Shown here piece by piece: positions 3,597 to 13,423 of a stretch of 21,266 nt of DNA; within the stretch, counting starts at the first letter, position 1, and each line of letters begins with the position of its first letter. The position numbers were made by a program, and so were the translations under genes. The notes beneath the pieces are model-generated. The model searched no databases. It had not been told where the DNA came from and was given only the letters and a program-made list of their open reading frames with translations. This stretch comes from a virus (Duplodnaviria > Heunggongvirae > Uroviricota > Caudoviricetes): IMG/VR virus record IMGVR_UViG_2740892113_000010; one strand, 5' to 3'.

Positions 3597-4601
3597 TAGT
3601 TGATACCCGCTGCCGAGCTGAAAGCTCTATCAATATTATTTCTGTTTCTGGCGGAAAGGATAGCCTTGCTCAATGGCTTGTTGGTATTGAAAGCGGTGTG
3701 CATTTTTTTGCCGGTTTTTGCAGACACCGGGCATGAGCATCCGCAGACAATGGAGTATCTCGATTATCTGGAGAACCGACTCGGGCCGGTTAAACGGGTT
3801 AAAGCTGACTTCTCCCGACAGATTGAAGGTAAGCGCAAGTTTATTGCTGAGAAATGGCCTGTTTCTCTGGTTGAAGAGTGCGGAATGTCTCCGGGGGAAG
3901 CGGCAGAGCGCATCAATTGTGCGCTGGAAATTCTCAAGCCTACTGGTATCCCATTTCTTGATTTGTGCATGTGGAAAGGGCGATTTCCTTCCACTAAAGC
4001 CAGATTTTGCACTTTTGACCTTAAACATGAGCCAGTACGTACTCAGGTCGTGTTACCTGCGCTTAATGAGTTTGATGAGGTAATTAGCTGGCAGGGGATT
4101 CGCGCTCAGGAGTCTCCTGCGCGCGCGGGTCTGCCTGCCTGGGAAGAGGATGCGGACAATACGCCCGGGCTCCATGTATACCGTCCTATTCTGAACTGGA
4201 CGCATGAGGAGGTATTTGCATTTGCAAGACGTCATGGAATTAAACCTAATCCGTTATACCAGCAGGGATGCAGTCGTGTCGGTTGTATGCCCTGCATCCA
4301 CGCCAGAAAGTCTGAATTAGCTGAAATTTTTAGTCGCTGGCCGGAAGAGGTTAAGCGTGTTGCGGAATGGGAGCGACTTGTCGCCGCATGCTCCAGACGC
4401 GGAAATTCTACTTTCTTCCCGTCAACTCATGACCCGCGTCGTGCGGAACGCCGCATTGATATTATTACTGTCGATGCTTACGGAATTGAGTCTTATCGTG
4501 ACTGGGCGATGACCACGCGTGGCGGGGCACAGTTTGATTTGCTGGCTTCGGTGAATGATAAGTCAGTTTGCAGTAGTGTCTATGCCGGTGTATGTGAATG
4601 A
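3593..4601 (+). pseudogene. PP-loop / PAPS-reductase-family protein, interrupted by a frameshift
   Basis: ATG 3593 (ATGA overlap with the upstream stop) opens a frame encoding MIVDTRCRAESSINIISVSGGKDSLAQWLVGIESGVHFF..., i.e. a canonical SGGKDS PP-loop, which stops at 3734-3736. The long ORF (track 3600..4601) is in a different frame and carries the expected downstream motif FADTGHEHPQT. The two frames overlap across a T7 run (3703-3709) and a T5 run (3715-3719). Removing one T restores ...GVHFLPVFADTGHE... Confidence 0.7.
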
Positions 4602-6883
4602 GTCATTCTTTCCAGGAGCAATACACCTGCGTACCTCCGTCAGCATTTGCTGCAGGCACCGGTAAGGCGTTTACCGGTGCTTATGCATGGAACGCGCCAC
4701 GCGAGGCCGTCGGGCGCGAAAGACCCCTTACACGTGACGAGATGCGTCAGGTGCAAGGTGTTTTATCCACGATTAACCGCCTGCCTTACTTTTTGCGCTC
4801 GCTGTTTACTTCACGCTATGACTACATCCGGCGCAATAAAAGCCCGGTGCACGGGTTTTATTTCCTCACATCTACTTTTCAGCGTCGTTTATGGCCGCGC
4901 ATTGAGCGCGTGAATCAGCGCCATGAAATGAACACCGACGCGTCGTTGCTATTTCTGGCAGAGCGTGACCACTATGCGCGCCTGCCTGGAATGAATGACA
5001 AGGAGCTGAAAAAGTTTGCCGCCCGTATCTCATCGCAGCTTTTCATGATGTATGAGGAACTCTGCGATGCATGGGTTGATGCACATGGCGAAAAAGAATC
5101 GCTGTTTACGGATGAGGCGCAGACTCACCTGTATGGTCATGTTGCTGGCGCTGCACGTGCTTTCAATATTTCCCCGCTCTACTGGAAAAAATACCGTAAA
5201 GGACAGATAACCACGAGGCAGGCATATTCTGCCATTGCCCGTCTGTTTAACGATGAGTGGTGGACTCATCAGCTTAAAGGCCAGCGTATGCGCTGGCATG
5301 AGGCGTTACTGATTGCTGTCGGGGAGGTCAATAAAGACCGTTCTCCTTATGCCAGTAAACATGCCATTCGTGATGTGCGTGCGCGCCGCCAGGCAAATCT
5401 GGAGTTTCTTAAATCGTGTGACCTTGAAAACAGGGAAACCGGCGAACGCATCGACCTTATCAGTAAGGTGATGGGCAGTATTTCTAATCCTGAAATTCGC
5501 CGGATGGAGCTGATGAACACCATTGCCGGTATTGAGCGTTACGCCGCCGCAGAGGGTGATGTGGGGATGTTTATCACGCTGACCGCGCCGTCAAAGTATC
5601 ACCCGACACGTCAGGTCGGAAAAGGCGAAAGTAAAACCGTTCAGCTTAATCACGGCTGGAACGATGAGGCATTTAATCCAAAGGATGCGCAGCGTTATCT
5701 CTGCCGTATCTGGAGCCTGATGCGCACGGCATTCAAGGATAATGATTTACAGGTCTACGGTTTGCGAGTCGTCGAGCCACACCACGACGGAACGCCGCAC
5801 TGGCATATGATGCTTTTTTGTAATCCACGCCAGCGTAACCAGATTATTGAAATCATGCGTCGCTACGCGCTCAAAGAGGATGGCGACGAAAGAGGAGCTG
5901 CGCGAAACCGTTTTCAGGCAAAACACCTTAACCGGGGCGGTGCTGCAGGGTATATCGCGAAATACATCTCAAAAAACATCGATGGCTATGCACTGGATGG
6001 TCAGCTCGATAACGATACCGGCAGGCCGCTGAAAGACACTGCCGCGGCTGTTACCGCATGGGCGTCAACGTGGCGCATTCCGCAATTTAAAACGGTTGGC
6101 CTGCCGACAATGGGGGCTTACCGTGAACTACGCAAATTGCCTCGCGGCGTCAGCATTGCTGATGAGTTTGACGAGCGCGTCGAGGCTGCACGCGCCGCTG
6201 CAGACAGTGGTGATTTTGCGTTGTATATCAGCGCGCAGGGCGGGGCAAATGTCCCGCGCGATTGTCAGACTGTCAGGGTCGCCCGTAGCCCGTCGGATGA
6301 CGTTAACGAGTACGAGGAAGAAGTCGAGAGAGTGGTCGGCATTTACGCGCCGCATCTCGGCGCGCGTCATATTCATATCACCAGAACGACGGACTGGCGC
6401 ATTGTTCCGAAAGTGCCGGTCGTTGAGCCTTTGACTTTAAAAAGCGGCATCGCCGCGCCTCGGAGTCCTGTCAATAACTGTGGAAAGCTCACCGGTGGTG
6501 ATACTTCGTTACCGGCTCCCACACCTTCTGAGCACGCCGCAGCAGTGCTTAATCTGGTAGATGACGGTGTTATCGAATGGAATGACCCGGAGGTCGTGAG
6601 GGCGCTCAGAGGTGCATTAAAACACGGCCTGAGAAGACCAAACCGTCAGCAAAGAAACGGAAGCCCGTTAAAACCGCATGAAATAGCGCCATCGGCCAGA
6701 CTGACCCGGTCTGAACGATTGCAAATCACCCGTATCCGCGTTGACCTTGCTCAGAACGGTATCAGGCCGCAGCGATGGGAGCTTGAGGCGCTGGCGCGTG
6801 GCGCGACCGTAAATTATGACGGGAAAAAATTCACGTATCCGGTCGCTGATGAGTGGTCGGGATTCTGGCATCAATTTGAGTAA
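4598..6883 (+). CDS. A: Rolling-circle replication initiator endonuclease, P2 gpA-like (761 aa)
   Basis: 761 aa, as recalled for P2 gpA. HUH-type motif (TPHWHMMLF) and tyrosines in YIAKYISK. ATGA overlap with the upstream gene. Confidence 0.93.
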   Translation: MSHSFQEQYTCVPPSAFAAGTGKAFTGAYAWNAPREAVGRERPLTRDEMRQVQGVLSTINRLPYFLRSLFTSRYDYIRRNKSPVHGFYFLTSTFQRRLWPRIERVNQRHEMNTDASLLFLAERDHYARLPGMNDKELKKFAARISSQLFMMYEELCDAWVDAHGEKESLFTDEAQTHLYGHVAGAARAFNISPLYWKKYRKGQITTRQAYSAIARLFNDEWWTHQLKGQRMRWHEALLIAVGEVNKDRSPYASKHAIRDVRARRQANLEFLKSCDLENRETGERIDLISKVMGSISNPEIRRMELMNTIAGIERYAAAEGDVGMFITLTAPSKYHPTRQVGKGESKTVQLNHGWNDEAFNPKDAQRYLCRIWSLMRTAFKDNDLQVYGLRVVEPHHDGTPHWHMMLFCNPRQRNQIIEIMRRYALKEDGDERGAARNRFQAKHLNRGGAAGYIAKYISKNIDGYALDGQLDNDTGRPLKDTAAAVTAWASTWRIPQFKTVGLPTMGAYRELRKLPRGVSIADEFDERVEAARAAADSGDFALYISAQGGANVPRDCQTVRVARSPSDDVNEYEEEVERVVGIYAPHLGARHIHITRTTDWRIVPKVPVVEPLTLKSGIAAPRSPVNNCGKLTGGDTSLPAPTPSEHAAAVLNLVDDGVIEWNDPEVVRALRGALKHGLRRPNRQQRNGSPLKPHEIAPSARLTRSERLQITRIRVDLAQNGIRPQRWELEALARGATVNYDGKKFTYPVADEWSGFWHQFE

Positions 6884-6972
6884 GGATCTCATCTATACAG
6901 TATAAGTAGTTTTGACTGTAATTGATTGTTTTTTATATGGTTGCATGCATTAAATCTACGTCAATATCATTA

Positions 6973-6981
6973 TGTTATAAT
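6973..6981 (+). promoter_or_regulatory. Candidate extended -10 promoter (TGtTATAAT) for the cargo operon
   Basis: TG-n-TATAAT read at 6973-6981, about 30 bp upstream of ATG 7010 in an AT-rich leader. An alternative TTGACT (6912-6917), 16 bp, TATATG pair lies further upstream. Confidence 0.35.
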
Positions 6982-7009
6982 GCATTACTTAAAAATGTTG
7001 GAGATAAAA

Positions 7010-7201
7010 ATGTTAAAGCCTGCAGATGTTGTTTGTTTGAAAAGCGGTGGATTTAAAATGACTGTATCTGACTCTACTGAAACTCATGCTAAATGTATTT
7101 GGCATGATAAAGAAGGAGTTTTGCACGAGGAGTCATTCTCCATTGATTTACTGGAAATAGCAGAGAGTAAAAGTGGTATGCTTTGTCGTCCACGTAAGTG
7201 A
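7010..7201 (+). CDS. Small DUF2158 / YodC-like protein (63 aa)
   Basis: ATG 7010 with SD GGAG (7000-7003, 6-nt spacer). The ORF-track start at 6926 is a TTG with no SD. Motif DVVCLKSGGFKMTV...CIWHD resembles the conserved core I recall for the YodC/DUF2158 family. AT-rich codon usage. Confidence 0.6.
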   Translation: MLKPADVVCLKSGGFKMTVSDSTETHAKCIWHDKEGVLHEESFSIDLLEIAESKSGMLCRPRK

Positions 7202-7228: not shown

Positions 7229-7909
7229 ATGAAACAATACAGCGAATTAGAAAACAATGTTAAGAGATTCATTGTTGAGCATGAAAAAGGGATTTCTATT
7301 GATGATATTCATCATAAGTTCCGGATGAAGGATGGTCAGAATCGCAAGATGGCAGATTATCTTATTGATAATAAAAAGATAATTTTGGAGATGAAAAGTC
7401 TTTTTTCTGACAGGGTCAAGAATGTCAATGATAAACTGAATGAGTTGGTTAAAACTGATAGTTGGCTTGCAAAAAACTGGCATGGTGCTATTCATTTAGA
7501 AGAGTTGATAAAAAGACACCCAGACTCAAAGCGATTTAGAAATGATATAATGAACTTTGCTTATGAAAATATTAAAACAAAGATAGTTAAGGAAGCTAAT
7601 AAGCAAATAAATGCAACAAAGGATGTTTTGGATTTAAATGACTCGATTGGCGGGTTGATTTTGTTAAATGATAATGTCTTTTCACATGAGTCTAATTATT
7701 TGTCAGATGAAATATTATATTTGCTAGGCACAAAGAGATATTCGAGTGTTGAGTTTGTGGTTTATATTGCAAAATTGATTGATAAACAGGTTGATGTTTG
7801 TGTGCTACTTGACAGTCAATCTAAAAATAAAAATTATATTGAATGGTATATGAATAATGTTTTTTTATTGAACTGGGCGTCTTTTAATAAATATGCAATA
7901 AAGATGTAG
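7229..7909 (+). CDS. Hypothetical protein, 226 aa (cargo, unknown function)
   Basis: Clean ORF 27 bp downstream of the YodC-like gene on the same strand, G-rich SD (GGGGGAAAG). Strongly AT-rich, Lys/Asn/Ile-rich. No Walker A or other recognisable catalytic motif. Confidence 0.7.
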   Translation: MKQYSELENNVKRFIVEHEKGISIDDIHHKFRMKDGQNRKMADYLIDNKKIILEMKSLFSDRVKNVNDKLNELVKTDSWLAKNWHGAIHLEELIKRHPDSKRFRNDIMNFAYENIKTKIVKEANKQINATKDVLDLNDSIGGLILLNDNVFSHESNYLSDEILYLLGTKRYSSVEFVVYIAKLIDKQVDVCVLLDSQSKNKNYIEWYMNNVFLLNWASFNKYAIKM

Positions 7910-8228
7910 TGGTGTGGATGGATATGAAATGAGTCAACCAAGATGCACCTTGGTCAGTAATCTCATGTGAGATACCACATATAACACCAAAAGTGTCAGG
8001 TTGATGGCCATTGTTCACCGTTTACAGCAGATTATGGTCAACGAAAATCTGACGCCTGACGAGCTGGTCGGGTGTGCCGAAATAGTCTGGGATAATTACG
8101 GGCGGTTTAACTATATCGGTCAGTCCAGAGTTGCGCCACCACCACGCAGACGATAGAGAACGCCGCCAGTCGTGAAACTTGTTTTCAGGCTGGCGGAGTT
8201 GAACAACGAGCGAAGTGAGGCGTTAGCA

Positions 8229-9170
8229 TTAAGTTAATTTTAATGAATGGTACTCTATCGAGCTGATTGTAGATGCGATATATTTACGATCATTTACAGA
8301 GAGTATTGCCGCTAGTAGACGACATACCAGAGCCTGCATTTGTAGCAATATATCGCTACCATATTGACAATCATTGATACTAGAGAAACCAAGCGGTTGC
8401 CCATTAAAAATGGCTTCATGAAAATTATCATTGCGTATAACTGAAACATTACATTCATCTGTTGCCCATGACGGGATTTTTACACCGTAATTTTCGCACA
8501 TCCAATATACTCTATTTTGATGAGATGGTTTTTTCTCTTTAATGACTTTATCCCTTTCATCCCATGCTATAGCAAAACAGCAATCAAGAGCCATATAAAG
8601 ATACTGGAATTTCTCAAAGGAAAGGTATAGTGGGTTATGTGACAGGAATAGGGAGTGTATCACCGCAGCTATTCTTTTAATGGAGCGATCATCTTTTTGT
8701 TTGTCTTTTATATAGTTAAGTGCTAGCTCTATTACTTCTTTTTCAGAGCATCCAACGAGAATAAAGTCGGTTAACTTAGTGGGCTTGATAGTGGTTGCAT
8801 CAAGAAAACCAGCGTCAGTGGTTGTCAATCTTATACCCTTGAAAAAAGAGAGGCACCACACAACAAAGTTGAGAGTTTCTAACGAGGATGTGTTTTTTAA
8901 TTTTAGTGTGTGCGTTTTGGGCATGCCGAATACTCGGTAACTATAAGGCATTGTGCATGTGTCACCATTAAGGTTATATACCTTTCGATTCCCAGGGTAT
9001 ATCCAACCATTAACAACGTTTTTATCATTGTTAATACGTTCCACGTTCTCAATAAGACCGGGTAAAGTACGCAAAGAAAATTGTTCAGTCTCAATGTTAA
9101 CTTCTACTGGATAGTATCCAAACTCCGAAATAATCTCATTTGGTTGCTGTTCGTCAACTTCACCTTGCAT
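8229..9170 (-). CDS. Hypothetical protein, 313 aa (cargo, unknown function)
   Basis: Minus-strand ORF convergent with the 226-aa gene. SD GGAGA 5 nt upstream of the ATG (complement of 9168-9170). AT-rich. No P-loop, so not an Old-type ATPase. Confidence 0.7.
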   Translation of the reverse strand: MQGEVDEQQPNEIISEFGYYPVEVNIETEQFSLRTLPGLIENVERINNDKNVVNGWIYPGNRKVYNLNGDTCTMPYSYRVFGMPKTHTLKLKNTSSLETLNFVVWCLSFFKGIRLTTTDAGFLDATTIKPTKLTDFILVGCSEKEVIELALNYIKDKQKDDRSIKRIAAVIHSLFLSHNPLYLSFEKFQYLYMALDCCFAIAWDERDKVIKEKKPSHQNRVYWMCENYGVKIPSWATDECNVSVIRNDNFHEAIFNGQPLGFSSINDCQYGSDILLQMQALVCRLLAAILSVNDRKYIASTISSIEYHSLKLT

Positions 9171-9408
9171 AACTTTCTCCGTTCAAAAACAGGCACGATA
9201 ATTCTCGTAAGCCTATCATGTTCGCAAAGTATCCATACCTGTGGATTTTGTAAATTTAAGTTGATTTGTCATTAAATAAGCCGTTGCATGCAACAAGTGA
9301 ATGTTTTTGCATGCGTCGGGGATGTCCGTTCAGGCTGCGTGCGGTCAGGACTGGTGCGGATCCATAGTATCTATGCAACTGCATTAAAACCGCCCCATGA
9401 AGCGGGCG

Positions 9409-9427
9409 GGCGAGGCGGGGAAAGCAC
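9409..9427. other. cos site core, P2-type 19-nt cohesive-end sequence GGCGAGGCGGGGAAAGCAC
   Basis: Exact string read at 9409-9427 in the GC-rich spacer between the cargo island and the portal gene Q. It matches the P2/P4 cohesive-end sequence as I recall it (from memory) and sits where cos is expected, next to Q. Confidence 0.6.
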
Positions 9428-9561
9428 TGCGCGCTGGCGGTGGTGCTGATTTTATTTTTTCAGCGTCTCAGCGCGTCGTGATGGCATTTAGTCGGCCTGC
9501 TGGGGCGTTGGTGTGTCTGCGGGGTGTTTTGTGCGGTGGTGAGGGCGTGATGACGGGATGT

Positions 9562-9588: not shown

Positions 9589-10623
9589 TCAGCCGTTGTC
9601 AGTGTCAAGTGAGTAGTTTTTAAAGCGGATGACCTCCTGACCGAGCCAGTCGTTTATCTCGCGGATCCTGTCCTGTAACGGGATAAGCTCATTGCGGACA
9701 AAGACCTTTGCCACTTTCTCAATATCACCCAGCGACCCGACGTTCTCCGGCTTGCCACCCATCAACTGAAAGGGGATGCGGTGCGCGTCCAGCAGGTCAG
9801 CGGCGCTGGCTTTTTTGATATTAAAAAAATCGTCCTTCGTCGCCACTTCACTGAGGGGGATAATTTTAATGCCGTCGGCTTTCCCCTGTGGGGCATAGAG
9901 AAACAGATTTTTAAAGTTATTGCGGCCTTTCGACTTCACCATGTTTTCGCGAAGCATTTCGATATCGTTGCGATCCTGCACGGCATCGGTGACGTACATG
10001 ATGTATCCAGCATGTGCGCCATTTTCGTAATACTTGCGGCGGAACAGCGTGGCCGACTCATTCAGCCAGGCAGAGTTAAGGGCGCTGAGATATTCCGGCA
10101 GGCCGTACAGCTCCTGATTAATATCCGGCTCCAGCAGGTGAAACACGGAGCCGGACGCGAAGGCTGTCGGCTCGTTGAAGGACGGCACCCACCAGTAAAC
10201 ATCCTCCTCCACGCCACGGCGGGTATATTTTGCCGGTGAGGTTTCCAGCCTGATAACCTTACCGGTGGTGCTGTAACGCTTTTCCAGAAACGCATTACCG
10301 AACACCAGAAAATCCAGCACAAAGCGGCTGAAATCCTGCTGGGAAAGCCACGGGTGCGGAATAAACGTTGAAGCCAGAATATTACGTTTGACGTAAATCG
10401 GTGAGCTGTGATGTACGGCAGCACGCAGGCTTTTTGCCAGACCGGTAAAGCTGACCGGTGGCTCATACCATCTGCCGTTACTGATGCACTCGACGTAATC
10501 CAGAATGTCACGGCGGTCGAGTACCGGCACCGGCTCACCAAAGGTGAATGCCTCCATTTTCGGGGCGCTGGCGGTCATTGTTTTCACCGCAGGTTGCGGT
10601 GTTTTCCCTTTTTTCTTGCTCAT
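9589..10623 (-). CDS. Q: Portal protein, P2 gpQ-like (344 aa)
   Basis: 344 aa, next to cos, start overlapping the stop of P; order and length as in P2. Confidence 0.93.
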   Translation of the reverse strand: MSKKKGKTPQPAVKTMTASAPKMEAFTFGEPVPVLDRRDILDYVECISNGRWYEPPVSFTGLAKSLRAAVHHSSPIYVKRNILASTFIPHPWLSQQDFSRFVLDFLVFGNAFLEKRYSTTGKVIRLETSPAKYTRRGVEEDVYWWVPSFNEPTAFASGSVFHLLEPDINQELYGLPEYLSALNSAWLNESATLFRRKYYENGAHAGYIMYVTDAVQDRNDIEMLRENMVKSKGRNNFKNLFLYAPQGKADGIKIIPLSEVATKDDFFNIKKASAADLLDAHRIPFQLMGGKPENVGSLGDIEKVAKVFVRNELIPLQDRIREINDWLGQEVIRFKNYSLDTDNG

Positions 10624-12395
10624 CAGTAAAACTCCAGAATGGTGGATGTCAGCGGGGTGCTGATACCGGCGGTGAGTGGCTCATTTAACAGGGCGTGCAT
10701 GGTCGCCCAGGCGAGGTCGGCGTGGCTGGCTTCCTCGCTGCGACTGGCCTCATAGGTGGCGCTGCGTCCGCTGCTGGTCATGGTCTTGCGGATAGCCATA
10801 AACGAGCTGGTGATGTCGGTGGCGCTGACGTCATATTCCAGACAGCCACGGCGGATAACGTCTTTTGCCTTGAGCACCATTGCGGTTTTCATTTCCGGTG
10901 TGTAGCGGATATCGCGCGCGGCGGGATAGAACGAGCGCACGAGCTGGAACACGCCGACACCGAGGCCGGTGGCATCAATACCGATGTATTCGACGTTATA
11001 TTTTTCGGTGAGTTTGCGGATGGATTCAGCCTGGGTGGCAAAGTCCATGCCTTTCCACTGGTGACGCTCAAGTATCCTGAATTTGCCACCGGCCACCACC
11101 GGCGGTGCCAGCACCACGCATCCGGCGCTGTCGCCACGGTGTGACGGGTCGTAACCAATCCATACCGGGCGGGAGCCGAACGGATTGGCGGCAAACGGTG
11201 CATAGTCTTCCCATTCTTCCAGCGTGTCGACCATGCAGCGTTGCAGCTCCTCGAACGGGAACACCGATGCCTTGTCGTCAACAAATTCACACATGAACAG
11301 GTTTTTAAAATCGTCGGCGCTGTTTTCGCGTTTGAGCTGCTCAATGTCGAACAGTGTGCAGCCACCTTTCAGGGCGTCCTCAATGGTGACAATCTGCCGC
11401 CACTGGCCGTCCGCACAGAGAAGCCCACCGGCAAGGGCGTTATGACTGACGTCGATTTCCACACGTTCGGCGGCGCTGGCGCGTCCCCGGTTGAACAGTT
11501 CACCCGACCAGAACGGGTAGGCGTCGTGCGCCAGTGTGGACGGGGTGGAGAAATAGGTCGAGCGCAGGTGACTCTGTGAGGCCATACCTGATGCCACCTT
11601 ACGCAGAACCTGAAAATTTGGGATCCAGAAAATCTCGTCGACGTACAGGTCACCGTTATGGCTCTGTGCGGTGTTGGAGTTGGTGCCGAGAAAAATCAGT
11701 TTTGCGCCGTTATTGCCCAGGACAATCGGGTCACCGGTCAGGTCAACGTCAACCAGACGGGCAAAGGCGATGATGTATTCACGGAACACATACGCCTGCG
11801 TTTTACTGGCCGACAGAAAAATCTGGTTATGACCGGTTTTCAGGGCGCGCAGCAGCGCCTCGCGGGAAAAATAAAATGTCGCGCCAATCTGGCGGGATTT
11901 CAGGATATCGCGGATGCGGTGCTCAAGCCCGGCGCGATACCAGTGCAACTGATAGTCGAAAGACTGCTCAAAGAAAATCTGCTCCAGCTTTTCGATAGCC
12001 TCGTCACTGAAAAAATTCTTTTTCGGTTTGCGCCGCCCGCCTTTGTTGCGGTTAGCGACGTTCGGATTAAGGTCTGCCTCGTTGCCGGTCTGGCTGTAGC
12101 GGTTTACCCGTGCCAGTCGTTCAATCTGGCGTCCGAGCAGGTCAATTTCCTTGAAGTCACCGCCGGTTTTCTGCGGTTTGATAATGAGCTGGGTCAGCCG
12201 CGCTTCCAGACTCATTTCGACACGGCTGATGGGGGCAACGCTGTCCCAGCCGTCGCGCTGTTTCCAGCTCTGCACCGTCGGGCGTTTCATCTGCAACATG
12301 GCGGCAATCTGCGGCACGGAAAACCCCTGCCAGTACAGCAGCGCCGCCTGACGACGCGGGTCGTGTAAAAGAGTGGTGTCTGTGGTGATGGTCAT
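10623..12395 (-). CDS. P: Terminase large (ATPase) subunit, P2 gpP-like (590 aa)
   Basis: ORF track 10623..12425 begins at TTG. The ATG at 12395 (MTITTDTT...) has SD GAGG and gives 590 aa, matching P2 gpP. Divergent from O. Confidence 0.92.
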   Translation of the reverse strand: MTITTDTTLLHDPRRQAALLYWQGFSVPQIAAMLQMKRPTVQSWKQRDGWDSVAPISRVEMSLEARLTQLIIKPQKTGGDFKEIDLLGRQIERLARVNRYSQTGNEADLNPNVANRNKGGRRKPKKNFFSDEAIEKLEQIFFEQSFDYQLHWYRAGLEHRIRDILKSRQIGATFYFSREALLRALKTGHNQIFLSASKTQAYVFREYIIAFARLVDVDLTGDPIVLGNNGAKLIFLGTNSNTAQSHNGDLYVDEIFWIPNFQVLRKVASGMASQSHLRSTYFSTPSTLAHDAYPFWSGELFNRGRASAAERVEIDVSHNALAGGLLCADGQWRQIVTIEDALKGGCTLFDIEQLKRENSADDFKNLFMCEFVDDKASVFPFEELQRCMVDTLEEWEDYAPFAANPFGSRPVWIGYDPSHRGDSAGCVVLAPPVVAGGKFRILERHQWKGMDFATQAESIRKLTEKYNVEYIGIDATGLGVGVFQLVRSFYPAARDIRYTPEMKTAMVLKAKDVIRRGCLEYDVSATDITSSFMAIRKTMTSSGRSATYEASRSEEASHADLAWATMHALLNEPLTAGISTPLTSTILEFY

Positions 12396-12568
12396 GAATA
12401 CCTCGCCGTGATGAATACACGGCAAGGCTACTGAGTCGCGCCCCGCGATTCGCTAAGGTGCTGTTGTGTCAGTGATAAGCCATCCGGGACTGATGGCGGA
12501 GGATGCGCATCGTCGGGAAACTGATGCCGACATGTGACTCCTCTAATCACTATTCAGGACTCCTGACA
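12396..12568. promoter_or_regulatory. Divergent late promoter region (P-side and O-side late promoters expected)
   Basis: 173-bp spacer between divergently transcribed P and O, as in P2. I could not find an exact TGT-N12-ACA activator-site match, so only the region is called. Confidence 0.45.
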
Positions 12569-13423
12569 ATGGCAAAAAAAGTCTCAAAATTCTTTCGTAT
12601 CGGCGTTGAGGGTGACACCTGTGACGGGCGTGTCATCAGTGCGCAGGATATTCAGGAAATGGCCGAAACCTTTGACCCGCGAGTCTATGGTTGCCGCATT
12701 AACCTGGAACATCTGCGCGGCATCCTGCCTGACGGTATTTTTAAGCGTTATGGCGATGTGGTCGAACTGAAGGCCGAAAAGATTGACGATGATTCGGCGC
12801 TGAAAGGCAAATGGGCGCTGTTTGCGAAAATCACCCCGACCGATGACCTTATCGCGATGAACAAGGCCGCGCAGAAGGTCTACACCTCAATGGAAATTCA
12901 GCCGAACTTTGCCAACACCGGCAAATGTTATCTGGTGGGGCTGGCCGTCACCGATGACCCGGCAAGCCTCGGCACGGAATACCTGGAATTCTGCCGCACG
13001 GCAAAACACAACCCTCTGAACCGCTTCAAATTAAGCCCTGAAAACCTGATTTCAGTGGCAACGCCCGTTGAGCTGGAATTTGAAGACCTGCCTGAAACCG
13101 TGTTCACCGCCCTGACCGAAAAGGTGAAATCCATTTTTGGCCGCAAACAGGCCAGCGATGACGCCCGTCTGAATGACGTGCATGAAGCGGTGACCGCTGT
13201 TGCTGAACATGTGCAGGAAAAACTGAGCGCCACTGAGCAGCGCCTCGCTGAGATGGAAACCGCCTTTTCCGCACTTAAGCAGGCGGTGACTGACAGGGCG
13301 GATGAAACCAGCCAGGCATTCACCCGCCTGAAAAACAGTCTCGACCACACCGAAAGTCTGACCCAGCAGCGCCGCAGCAAGGCCACCGGTGGTGGCGGTG
13401 ACGGCCTGATGACGAACTGCTGA
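12569..13423 (+). CDS. O: Capsid scaffolding protein, P2 gpO-like (284 aa)
   Basis: ORF track starts at 12503; the ATG at 12569 (MAKKVSKFFRIGVEG...) gives 284 aa as in P2 gpO. Coiled-coil-like C-terminal half. Confidence 0.9.
   Translation: MAKKVSKFFRIGVEGDTCDGRVISAQDIQEMAETFDPRVYGCRINLEHLRGILPDGIFKRYGDVVELKAEKIDDDSALKGKWALFAKITPTDDLIAMNKAAQKVYTSMEIQPNFANTGKCYLVGLAVTDDPASLGTEYLEFCRTAKHNPLNRFKLSPENLISVATPVELEFEDLPETVFTALTEKVKSIFGRKQASDDARLNDVHEAVTAVAEHVQEKLSATEQRLAEMETAFSALKQAVTDRADETSQAFTRLKNSLDHTESLTQQRRSKATGGGGDGLMTNC

Follow-up and report, generated by a model that had tools for sequence, protein, structure and literature searches.

A one-gene cassette beside cos in a P2-like prophage encodes a candidate single-protein HEPN defence system

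In the course of analysing a 21,266-nt segment of a P2-like prophage (record IMGVR_UViG_2740892113_000010, Caudoviricetes; the whole segment is called the window hereafter), we examined a gene on its minus strand that lies next to the cos site and encodes a 313-residue protein, referred to as the target. This protein is considered to be a credible candidate for an anti-phage role, for which an invariant Rx4H motif in a HEPN-like fold and the position of the gene in the phage genome provide arguments. The gene and its surroundings are as follows.

4598–6883, plus strand: gene A
6926–7201, plus strand: cargo open reading frame (ORF), DUF2158-like, AT-rich
7229–7909, plus strand: cargo ORF of 226 aa, AT-rich
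7969–8226, no strand assigned: spacer of 258 bp, 90% identical to the 3′ end of Wphi orf92 plus the downstream intergenic sequence; left border of the cassette
8229–9170 (stop codon included), minus strand: target coding sequence, 313 aa, ATG start, identical to WP_032179103; PHROG 5937
9180–9177, minus strand: Shine-Dalgarno sequence GGAG, 6 nt before the target ATG
9409–9427, plus strand: 19-nt P2-type cos cohesive-end sequence GGCGAGGCGGGGAAAGCAC, aligned to P2 cosR
9589–10623, minus strand: portal gene Q
10623–12425, minus strand: terminase gene P

An earlier interpretation made from the letters of the window (the sequence-only reading) had described the target as a gene antisense to A and to the upstream cargo, with a good Shine-Dalgarno sequence, in the position that old occupies in phage P2. 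The ORF coordinates bear out the orientation relative to A and to both plus-strand cargo ORFs, and the ribosome-binding site was found as described. The placement was also correct, because the cos sequence lies only 239 bp from the target start codon and old of P2 (NC_001895) sits on the same strand and in the matching slot adjoining cosR. A search of the 313-residue protein for GxxxxGK[ST] confirmed that it has no P-loop. The GC content of the target cassette (36–39%) is well below that of the phage core (52–58%).

Judged by its recurrence in sequence collections, the target ORF can be taken with confidence as a gene: 799 contigs encode exactly this protein. A word-indexed search yielded 260 relatives, and a full scan with a profile hidden Markov model extended the family to 654 clusters (50% identity) at E ≤ 1e-3, 441 of them reaching 1e-10; nearly all members are about 300 aa long and match over their full length. 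From contigs representing one genome per species, 77 loci were recovered, which belong to Gamma-, Beta- and Alphaproteobacteria and, in a few cases, to metagenome-assembled Acidobacteriota, Planctomycetota, Latescibacterota, Gemmatimonadota-like bacteria and Chloroflexota. The gene is present in 93 of 5426 complete E. coli genomes (1.7%) and is chromosomal in every case; other genera with members of the family include Pseudomonas, Acinetobacter, Aeromonas, Xanthomonas and Sphingopyxis. Despite this spread, searches of Pfam, NCBIfam and PADLOC with the target protein and 68 diverse relatives gave no accepted match, and the protein of the window itself retrieved no Pfam family at E ≤ 1. PHROG 5937 carries no assigned function, and the longer homologues were found to contain no recognisable extra domain. 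On the basis of these comparisons, the target belongs to no named HEPN family or defence system among those tested.

An AlphaFold2 model of the target was built on a 28-sequence alignment, with a predicted local distance difference test score (pLDDT) of 81 and a predicted template modelling score of 0.82. In this model an alpha/beta region at the N-terminus gives way, at about residue 143, to a helical C-terminal half; conservation was followed in an alignment of 68 family members with identities down to 23%. The resulting parts of the protein are listed below.

8745–9170, minus strand: N-terminal region, residues 1–142, alpha/beta core
8232–8744, minus strand: C-terminal helical domain, residues 143–313, HEPN-like fold
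8415–8435, minus strand: R246-N-D-N-F-H251-E252, candidate HEPN Rx4H catalytic motif, R in 68/68, N in 64/68, H in 68/68 and E in 63/68
8655–8675, minus strand: R166-x5-H172, motif of the sequence-only reading, R in 21/68 and H in 55/68

In the model the C-terminal half appears as an alpha-helical up-down bundle of the HEPN kind. Its best structural matches are HepT-type HEPN toxins (for example 7ae2, 8xdj and 5yep), and Csm6, ST0689, AbiA, the sacsin HEPN domain, 4nqf, AF0298, AbiV (6.2) and SO_3166 are further structures listed with it. Six residues are invariant in the 68-member alignment, namely G112, E186, R246, H251, G261 and R284. Two of these, R246 and H251 (68/68 each), together with N247 (64/68) and E252 (63/68), provide a conserved motif of the Rx4-6H type (commonly R-[N/H/Q/D]-x3-H), the canonical HEPN Rx4H signature being R-N-x-x-x-H. 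The motif sits in helix 243–256 of the model, with the caveat that segment 246–269 was predicted at pLDDT below 50.

The sequence-only reading had already raised the idea of a HEPN ribonuclease (RNase), pointing to the spacing R166-x5-H172 while cautioning that a single occurrence is not significant by itself. That caution was well placed, as an R-x4-6-H spacing is expected 0.66 times per shuffle of the target sequence. The idea was probably right and the residues were wrong, because R246 and H251, which had been overlooked, are invariant, whereas R166 is retained in only 21 and H172 in 55 of the 68 members. R166 and H172 are indeed present in the protein; as they are not conserved across the family, they do not hold as the targets for mutagenesis that had been put forward.

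The segment around the motif (about 8415–8500, residues ~243–283, SVIRNDNFHEAIFNGQPLGF) also resembles the N-terminus of the E. coli ribonucleotide reductase R2 protein, with a whole-sequence E-value of about 0.007 and a per-domain E-value of 0.16; the likeness is probably due to chance.

The N-terminal region is predicted to consist of strands 13–18, 25–27, 31–35, 62–65, 71–74 and 87–91 and of helices 39–47 and 97–111. It contains the motifs FGYYP, WIYPG, RVFGxPKTH and FVVWCLSFFxGxRLT-x4-GFLDAT, and T86, H87, R114 and D135 are its near-invariant polar residues. Residues 110–140 are highly conserved and fold only alongside the C-terminal domain: when the N-terminal region was modelled alone, pLDDT fell to 63 and residues 109–142 were disordered, so the region does not constitute an independent domain. 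Its fold could not be assigned, and a bacterial RyR domain, recognised by a significant profile match together with the RyR-repeat fold, was not found there.

The sequence-only reading had further proposed that the gene could act independently, as a single-gene system, and its genomic arrangement upholds this. At each of the four E. coli loci inspected, the gene occupies the A-to-Q hotspot of a P2-like prophage and has a constant orientation; its companions vary, being the DUF2158-like and 226-aa genes, an ImmA/IrrE gene with a 199-aa gene, or DinI with small hypothetical genes and a 327-aa gene. In Yersinia phage vB_YpM_46 the cassette 7969–9365 is 98.7% identical and the other slot holds a DUF3850 gene and a small ORF, while divergent alleles of the target adjoin ImmA/IrrE or DinI neighbours. 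The spacer at 7969–8226, of higher GC content, is fixed between the two exchangeable cargo slots and ends 3 nt before the target stop codon; the swapped unit thus comprises the gene and roughly 200 nt upstream of it. Across 72 loci no cluster of neighbouring genes recurred at more than 11, and those 11 are syntenic Sphingopyxis genomes, so that no conserved partner accompanies the gene. A search of the cassette for an Rfam family or a repeat array that might serve as an RNA antitoxin found none.

The convergent 226-aa gene was considered as a partner and rejected, since it is present in 27 E. coli genomes and the target in 93, since two of the seven phage records with the target have it as well, and since the conserved backbone spacer lies between the two genes. 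It occurs beside target alleles that differ by 15% in their DNA, and the two genes therefore have separate histories.

The transcription of the target was examined through the following elements.

9583–9568, minus strand: terminator hairpin of Q, terminator-like
9409–9390, minus strand: GC-rich stem-loop followed by a T-run, adjoining cos, terminator-like hairpin
9272–9267 (ATGACA), 16 nt, 9250–9245 (CAAAAT), minus strand: preferred promoter candidate, listed by a consensus scan
9254–9249 (TTTACA), 17 nt, 9231–9226 (TACTTT), minus strand: promoter candidate of the sequence-only reading, its −10 hexamer matching TATAAT at 3 of 6 positions

The two hairpins part the target from the late P-Q transcript, which means that it has to be transcribed from a promoter of its own. 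The sigma70-like pair TTTACA-17-TACTTT suggested previously is present where it was described; its plausibility did not hold up, given the poor −10 match, its absence from the consensus promoter scan and the position of the P2 old-tin transcript starts. These starts, annotated in NC_001895, align to window positions 9241 and 9239 and thus fall within the spacer of that pair, which is weak on sequence grounds and probably not the promoter used. For the same reason the alignment favours ATGACA-16-CAAAAT as the candidate promoter of the target, the CAAAAT hexamer being positionally homologous to the −10 element upstream of the mapped P2 old-tin starts. Promoter-like sites as such are not above chance in this region (14 found, against 9.8 ± 3.1 expected in shuffled sequences). 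Between cos and the target (9171–9430), the window shows patchy homology to the sequence that precedes old in P2, the surroundings of the old-tin starts included, and has an insertion of 18 nt relative to it. Like old, the target is probably transcribed from a promoter lying between it and cos, and a promoter resident in the hotspot may serve whichever gene is swapped in.

In other genomes, 111 non-redundant immediate neighbours of the family were annotated with PADLOC and Pfam. Defence genes among them comprise mad2 (3 loci), DUF4238 (2 loci), type IIG restriction-modification, HmaA/HmaB, DRT1a, PDC-S49, HEC-05 and RmrA, and further neighbours are conjugation genes of type IV secretion systems and phage genes. 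In Pseudomonas aeruginosa (loci L001–L005) the homologue, at 6001–6960, belongs to an island with ParB_N (ParB) and DUF932 genes, and an OLD-family ATPase with a UvrD helicase (Gabija-like) follows about 3 kb downstream at 9984–12960. In Aeromonas veronii (L006–L009, 4684–6963) it lies 105 bp downstream of a same-strand AlkZ-like gene of the DNA glycosylase family, and the two form a small islet amid housekeeping operons. Overall, the distribution of the family is patchy and linked to mobile elements and to defence.

The family has already been flagged, without a name, in two published catalogues. The survey that defined the A-to-Q hotspot of P2 lists the exact locus in its Table S5A (WP_032179103, WP_072164333, WP_023136039 and WP_001547483), and its Table S5B has an entry for a family member, system 11, which consists of one unannotated gene and is counted 218 times in P2 hotspots (Rousset 2022). 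Signature peptides of the family are absent from the table of cloned systems of that study and present only in catalogue Table S5. By PADLOC and signature peptides, the target matches none of the validated P2-hotspot systems (DUF4238, 3HP, DprA-PRTase and old-tin); identity with the three-hypothetical-protein (3HP) system in particular was rejected for lack of a PADLOC match and because the peptides do not occur in the cloned set. The second catalogue is that of DefensePredictor (Science 2026), Table S10 of which gives the paralogue WP_001161722.1 a log-odds score of 9.68, against a cutoff of 4, and labels it ‘Predicted novel defense gene’; this accession is not in the tables of tested or validated systems of that work. 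A full-text literature search for four accession numbers of the family retrieved nothing.

By analogy of design, the closest characterised counterpart of the target is HepS of the Salmonella prophage Gifsy-1, which is likewise a lone prophage-encoded HEPN-domain protein made from one gene with no partner. HepS both senses siphovirus tail tips and executes abortive infection, cutting tRNA anticodon loops (PMC13043305). The HepT toxins, in contrast, have about 130–140 aa and always occur with an MNT nucleotidyltransferase antitoxin, whereas the target has 313 aa and no partner; no nucleotidyltransferase was found in the 25 most frequent of the 76 Pfam families matched by the 111 immediate neighbours. 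ApeA is also a stand-alone defence protein with an N-terminal non-HEPN part and a C-terminal HEPN domain (Gao 2020), but its NTD1 is mostly beta and about 300 aa long, whereas the N-terminal region of the target is alpha/beta and spans about 140 aa, and the target gave neither a PADLOC match to ApeA nor a match to PF18739 above the gathering score. AbiV and the HEPN domain of AbiA, from abortive infection systems of Lactococcus, have no sequence similarity to the target; a polymerase domain resembling reverse transcriptase is part of AbiA, and AbiV is small and consists of HEPN only. With P2 Old the target shares slot, strand and proximity to cos, but the proteins are unrelated: Old is an OLD-family ATPase-TOPRIM nuclease, and the target has neither P-loop nor TOPRIM domain and no match in PADLOC, Pfam or NCBIfam.

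Taking these results together, we propose that the target is a prophage-expressed single protein combining a sensor with a HEPN RNase and acting by abortive infection or exclusion, a proposal to which we give about an even chance. The invariant Rx4H motif, the HEPN-like fold, the old slot, the one-gene cassette without a partner and the defence and mobile-element neighbours all speak for it. The protein would be expressed from the prophage by way of the promoter in the old-proximal region near cos. R246-N-x3-H251 of its C-terminal RNase domain would pair with the same motif of a second protomer, as HEPN nucleases typically have composite active sites of this kind. Packed on the HEPN domain, the conserved alpha/beta region at the N-terminus would hold the nuclease inactive up to the moment when some product of the infecting phage is sensed, upon which the activated enzyme would cut tRNA, mRNA or rRNA, and translation would stop before the invader completed its cycle. 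A bolder version, which we regard as rather unlikely, would make the target the founder of a new class of signal-gated HEPN proteins, in which the N-terminal region, with its near-invariant T86, H87, R114 and D135, is a new sensor of a phage protein or small molecule that switches on the RNase allosterically, in a one-protein sensor-effector that is unrelated to the CARF/SAVED-gated or tail-tip-gated HEPN enzymes and has spread through many bacterial phyla.

Several points weigh against the proposed defence role. Some HEPN domains are not nucleases, such as those of sacsin and the KNTase C-terminal domain. The HEPN assignment is a candidate one, made on the fold of the model and on the conservation of the R246/H251 motif. 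The structure search recommended by the sequence-only reading, Foldseek against the PDB, returned nothing at E < 0.6 and was uninformative. Among the 68 members, the best matches to Pfam HEPN models had E-values of 0.074 (PF18735, RiboL-PSP) and 0.15 (PF18739, HEPN_Apea), in one member each. The overall validation rate of DefensePredictor is 45%, part of the P2 hotspot cargo is non-defensive, for example partition systems and cytolethal distending toxin (Rousset 2022), and no experimental phenotype or test of the family was found within the literature reachable.

In an alternative reading, the target is a lysogenic-conversion or regulatory protein without a part in defence, whose HEPN-resembling helical domain binds a ligand, nucleotide or protein and has no nuclease activity. 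The fold-level similarity is of moderate Z and the motif region was modelled with low confidence, and some homologues, as in A. veronii, sit amid housekeeping genes. We nevertheless hold this reading to be unlikely, as conservation of R-N-x3-H-E across distant phyla is what would be expected of a catalytic HEPN site, and as the patchy distribution linked to mobile elements and defence and the high DefensePredictor score speak for a defensive function. If the domain is a nuclease, it could instead be the toxin of a selfish addiction module that stabilises the cassette or the prophage and is not directed mainly at phages; some overlooked antitoxin, whether a small protein, antisense RNA or auto-inhibition, would restrain the toxin. 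That HepT-type toxins are the best structural matches would fit, as would the antitoxin-like PhdYefM and HTH_3 neighbours at a few loci. The absence of any neighbour conserved over the 72 loci and of an MNT partner, the lack of an Rfam RNA or tandem-repeat antitoxin in the cassette and the length of 313 aa, more than twice that of HepT and including a conserved extra region, make this module improbable.

A role on the side of the phage has also to be considered, in which the target would serve counter-defence or, in the lytic cycle, be directed against satellite P4 or rival P2-like phages. P2-like phages that form plaques and were isolated on Yersinia pestis have the gene, which adjoins cos, an element common to P4 and P2. 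Most members, however, come not from P2-like phages but from chromosomal islands and conjugative elements in many phyla; two terminators part the gene from the late P-Q operon, and the P2 gene of the same slot, old, is a prophage-expressed exclusion gene. This role is thus the most remote of the readings considered.

If the proposed combination of sensor and HEPN RNase is correct, a widespread family (~650 clusters at 50% identity) would join the single-protein HEPN abortive-infection systems, and its compact architecture, with an N-terminal region without known relatives, could reveal a new mode of sensing infection. It would also fill in system 11, which ranks among the commonest entries without annotation in the catalogue of the P2 hotspot (Rousset 2022). 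For mutagenesis, R246 and H251 replace R166 and H172 as the residues of choice.

Some further observations were made on the genes around the target and its homologues. The DUF2158-like and 226-aa genes fill a separate slot immediately after gene A, with a GC content of 31–35%. The 226-aa protein belongs to PHROG 20483, which has no assigned function, and has no match in Pfam, PADLOC or NCBIfam; of the 5426 complete E. coli genomes, 27 contain its gene, which is at least 99% identical in 25 of these. RefSeq places a 51-aa ORF within the spacer (8001–8156), under the name ‘meiotically up-regulated 80 protein’; this annotation seems to be an artefact. In a P2-like prophage of E. coli 2779 (L012), the target homologue and the portal gene are separated by an additional unannotated gene of 327 aa (5418–6401, minus strand), and the cos-side slot can therefore hold more than one cassette. 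In the P. aeruginosa island, several unannotated genes encoding proteins of 200–360 aa lie upstream of the homologue and could be further defence candidates.
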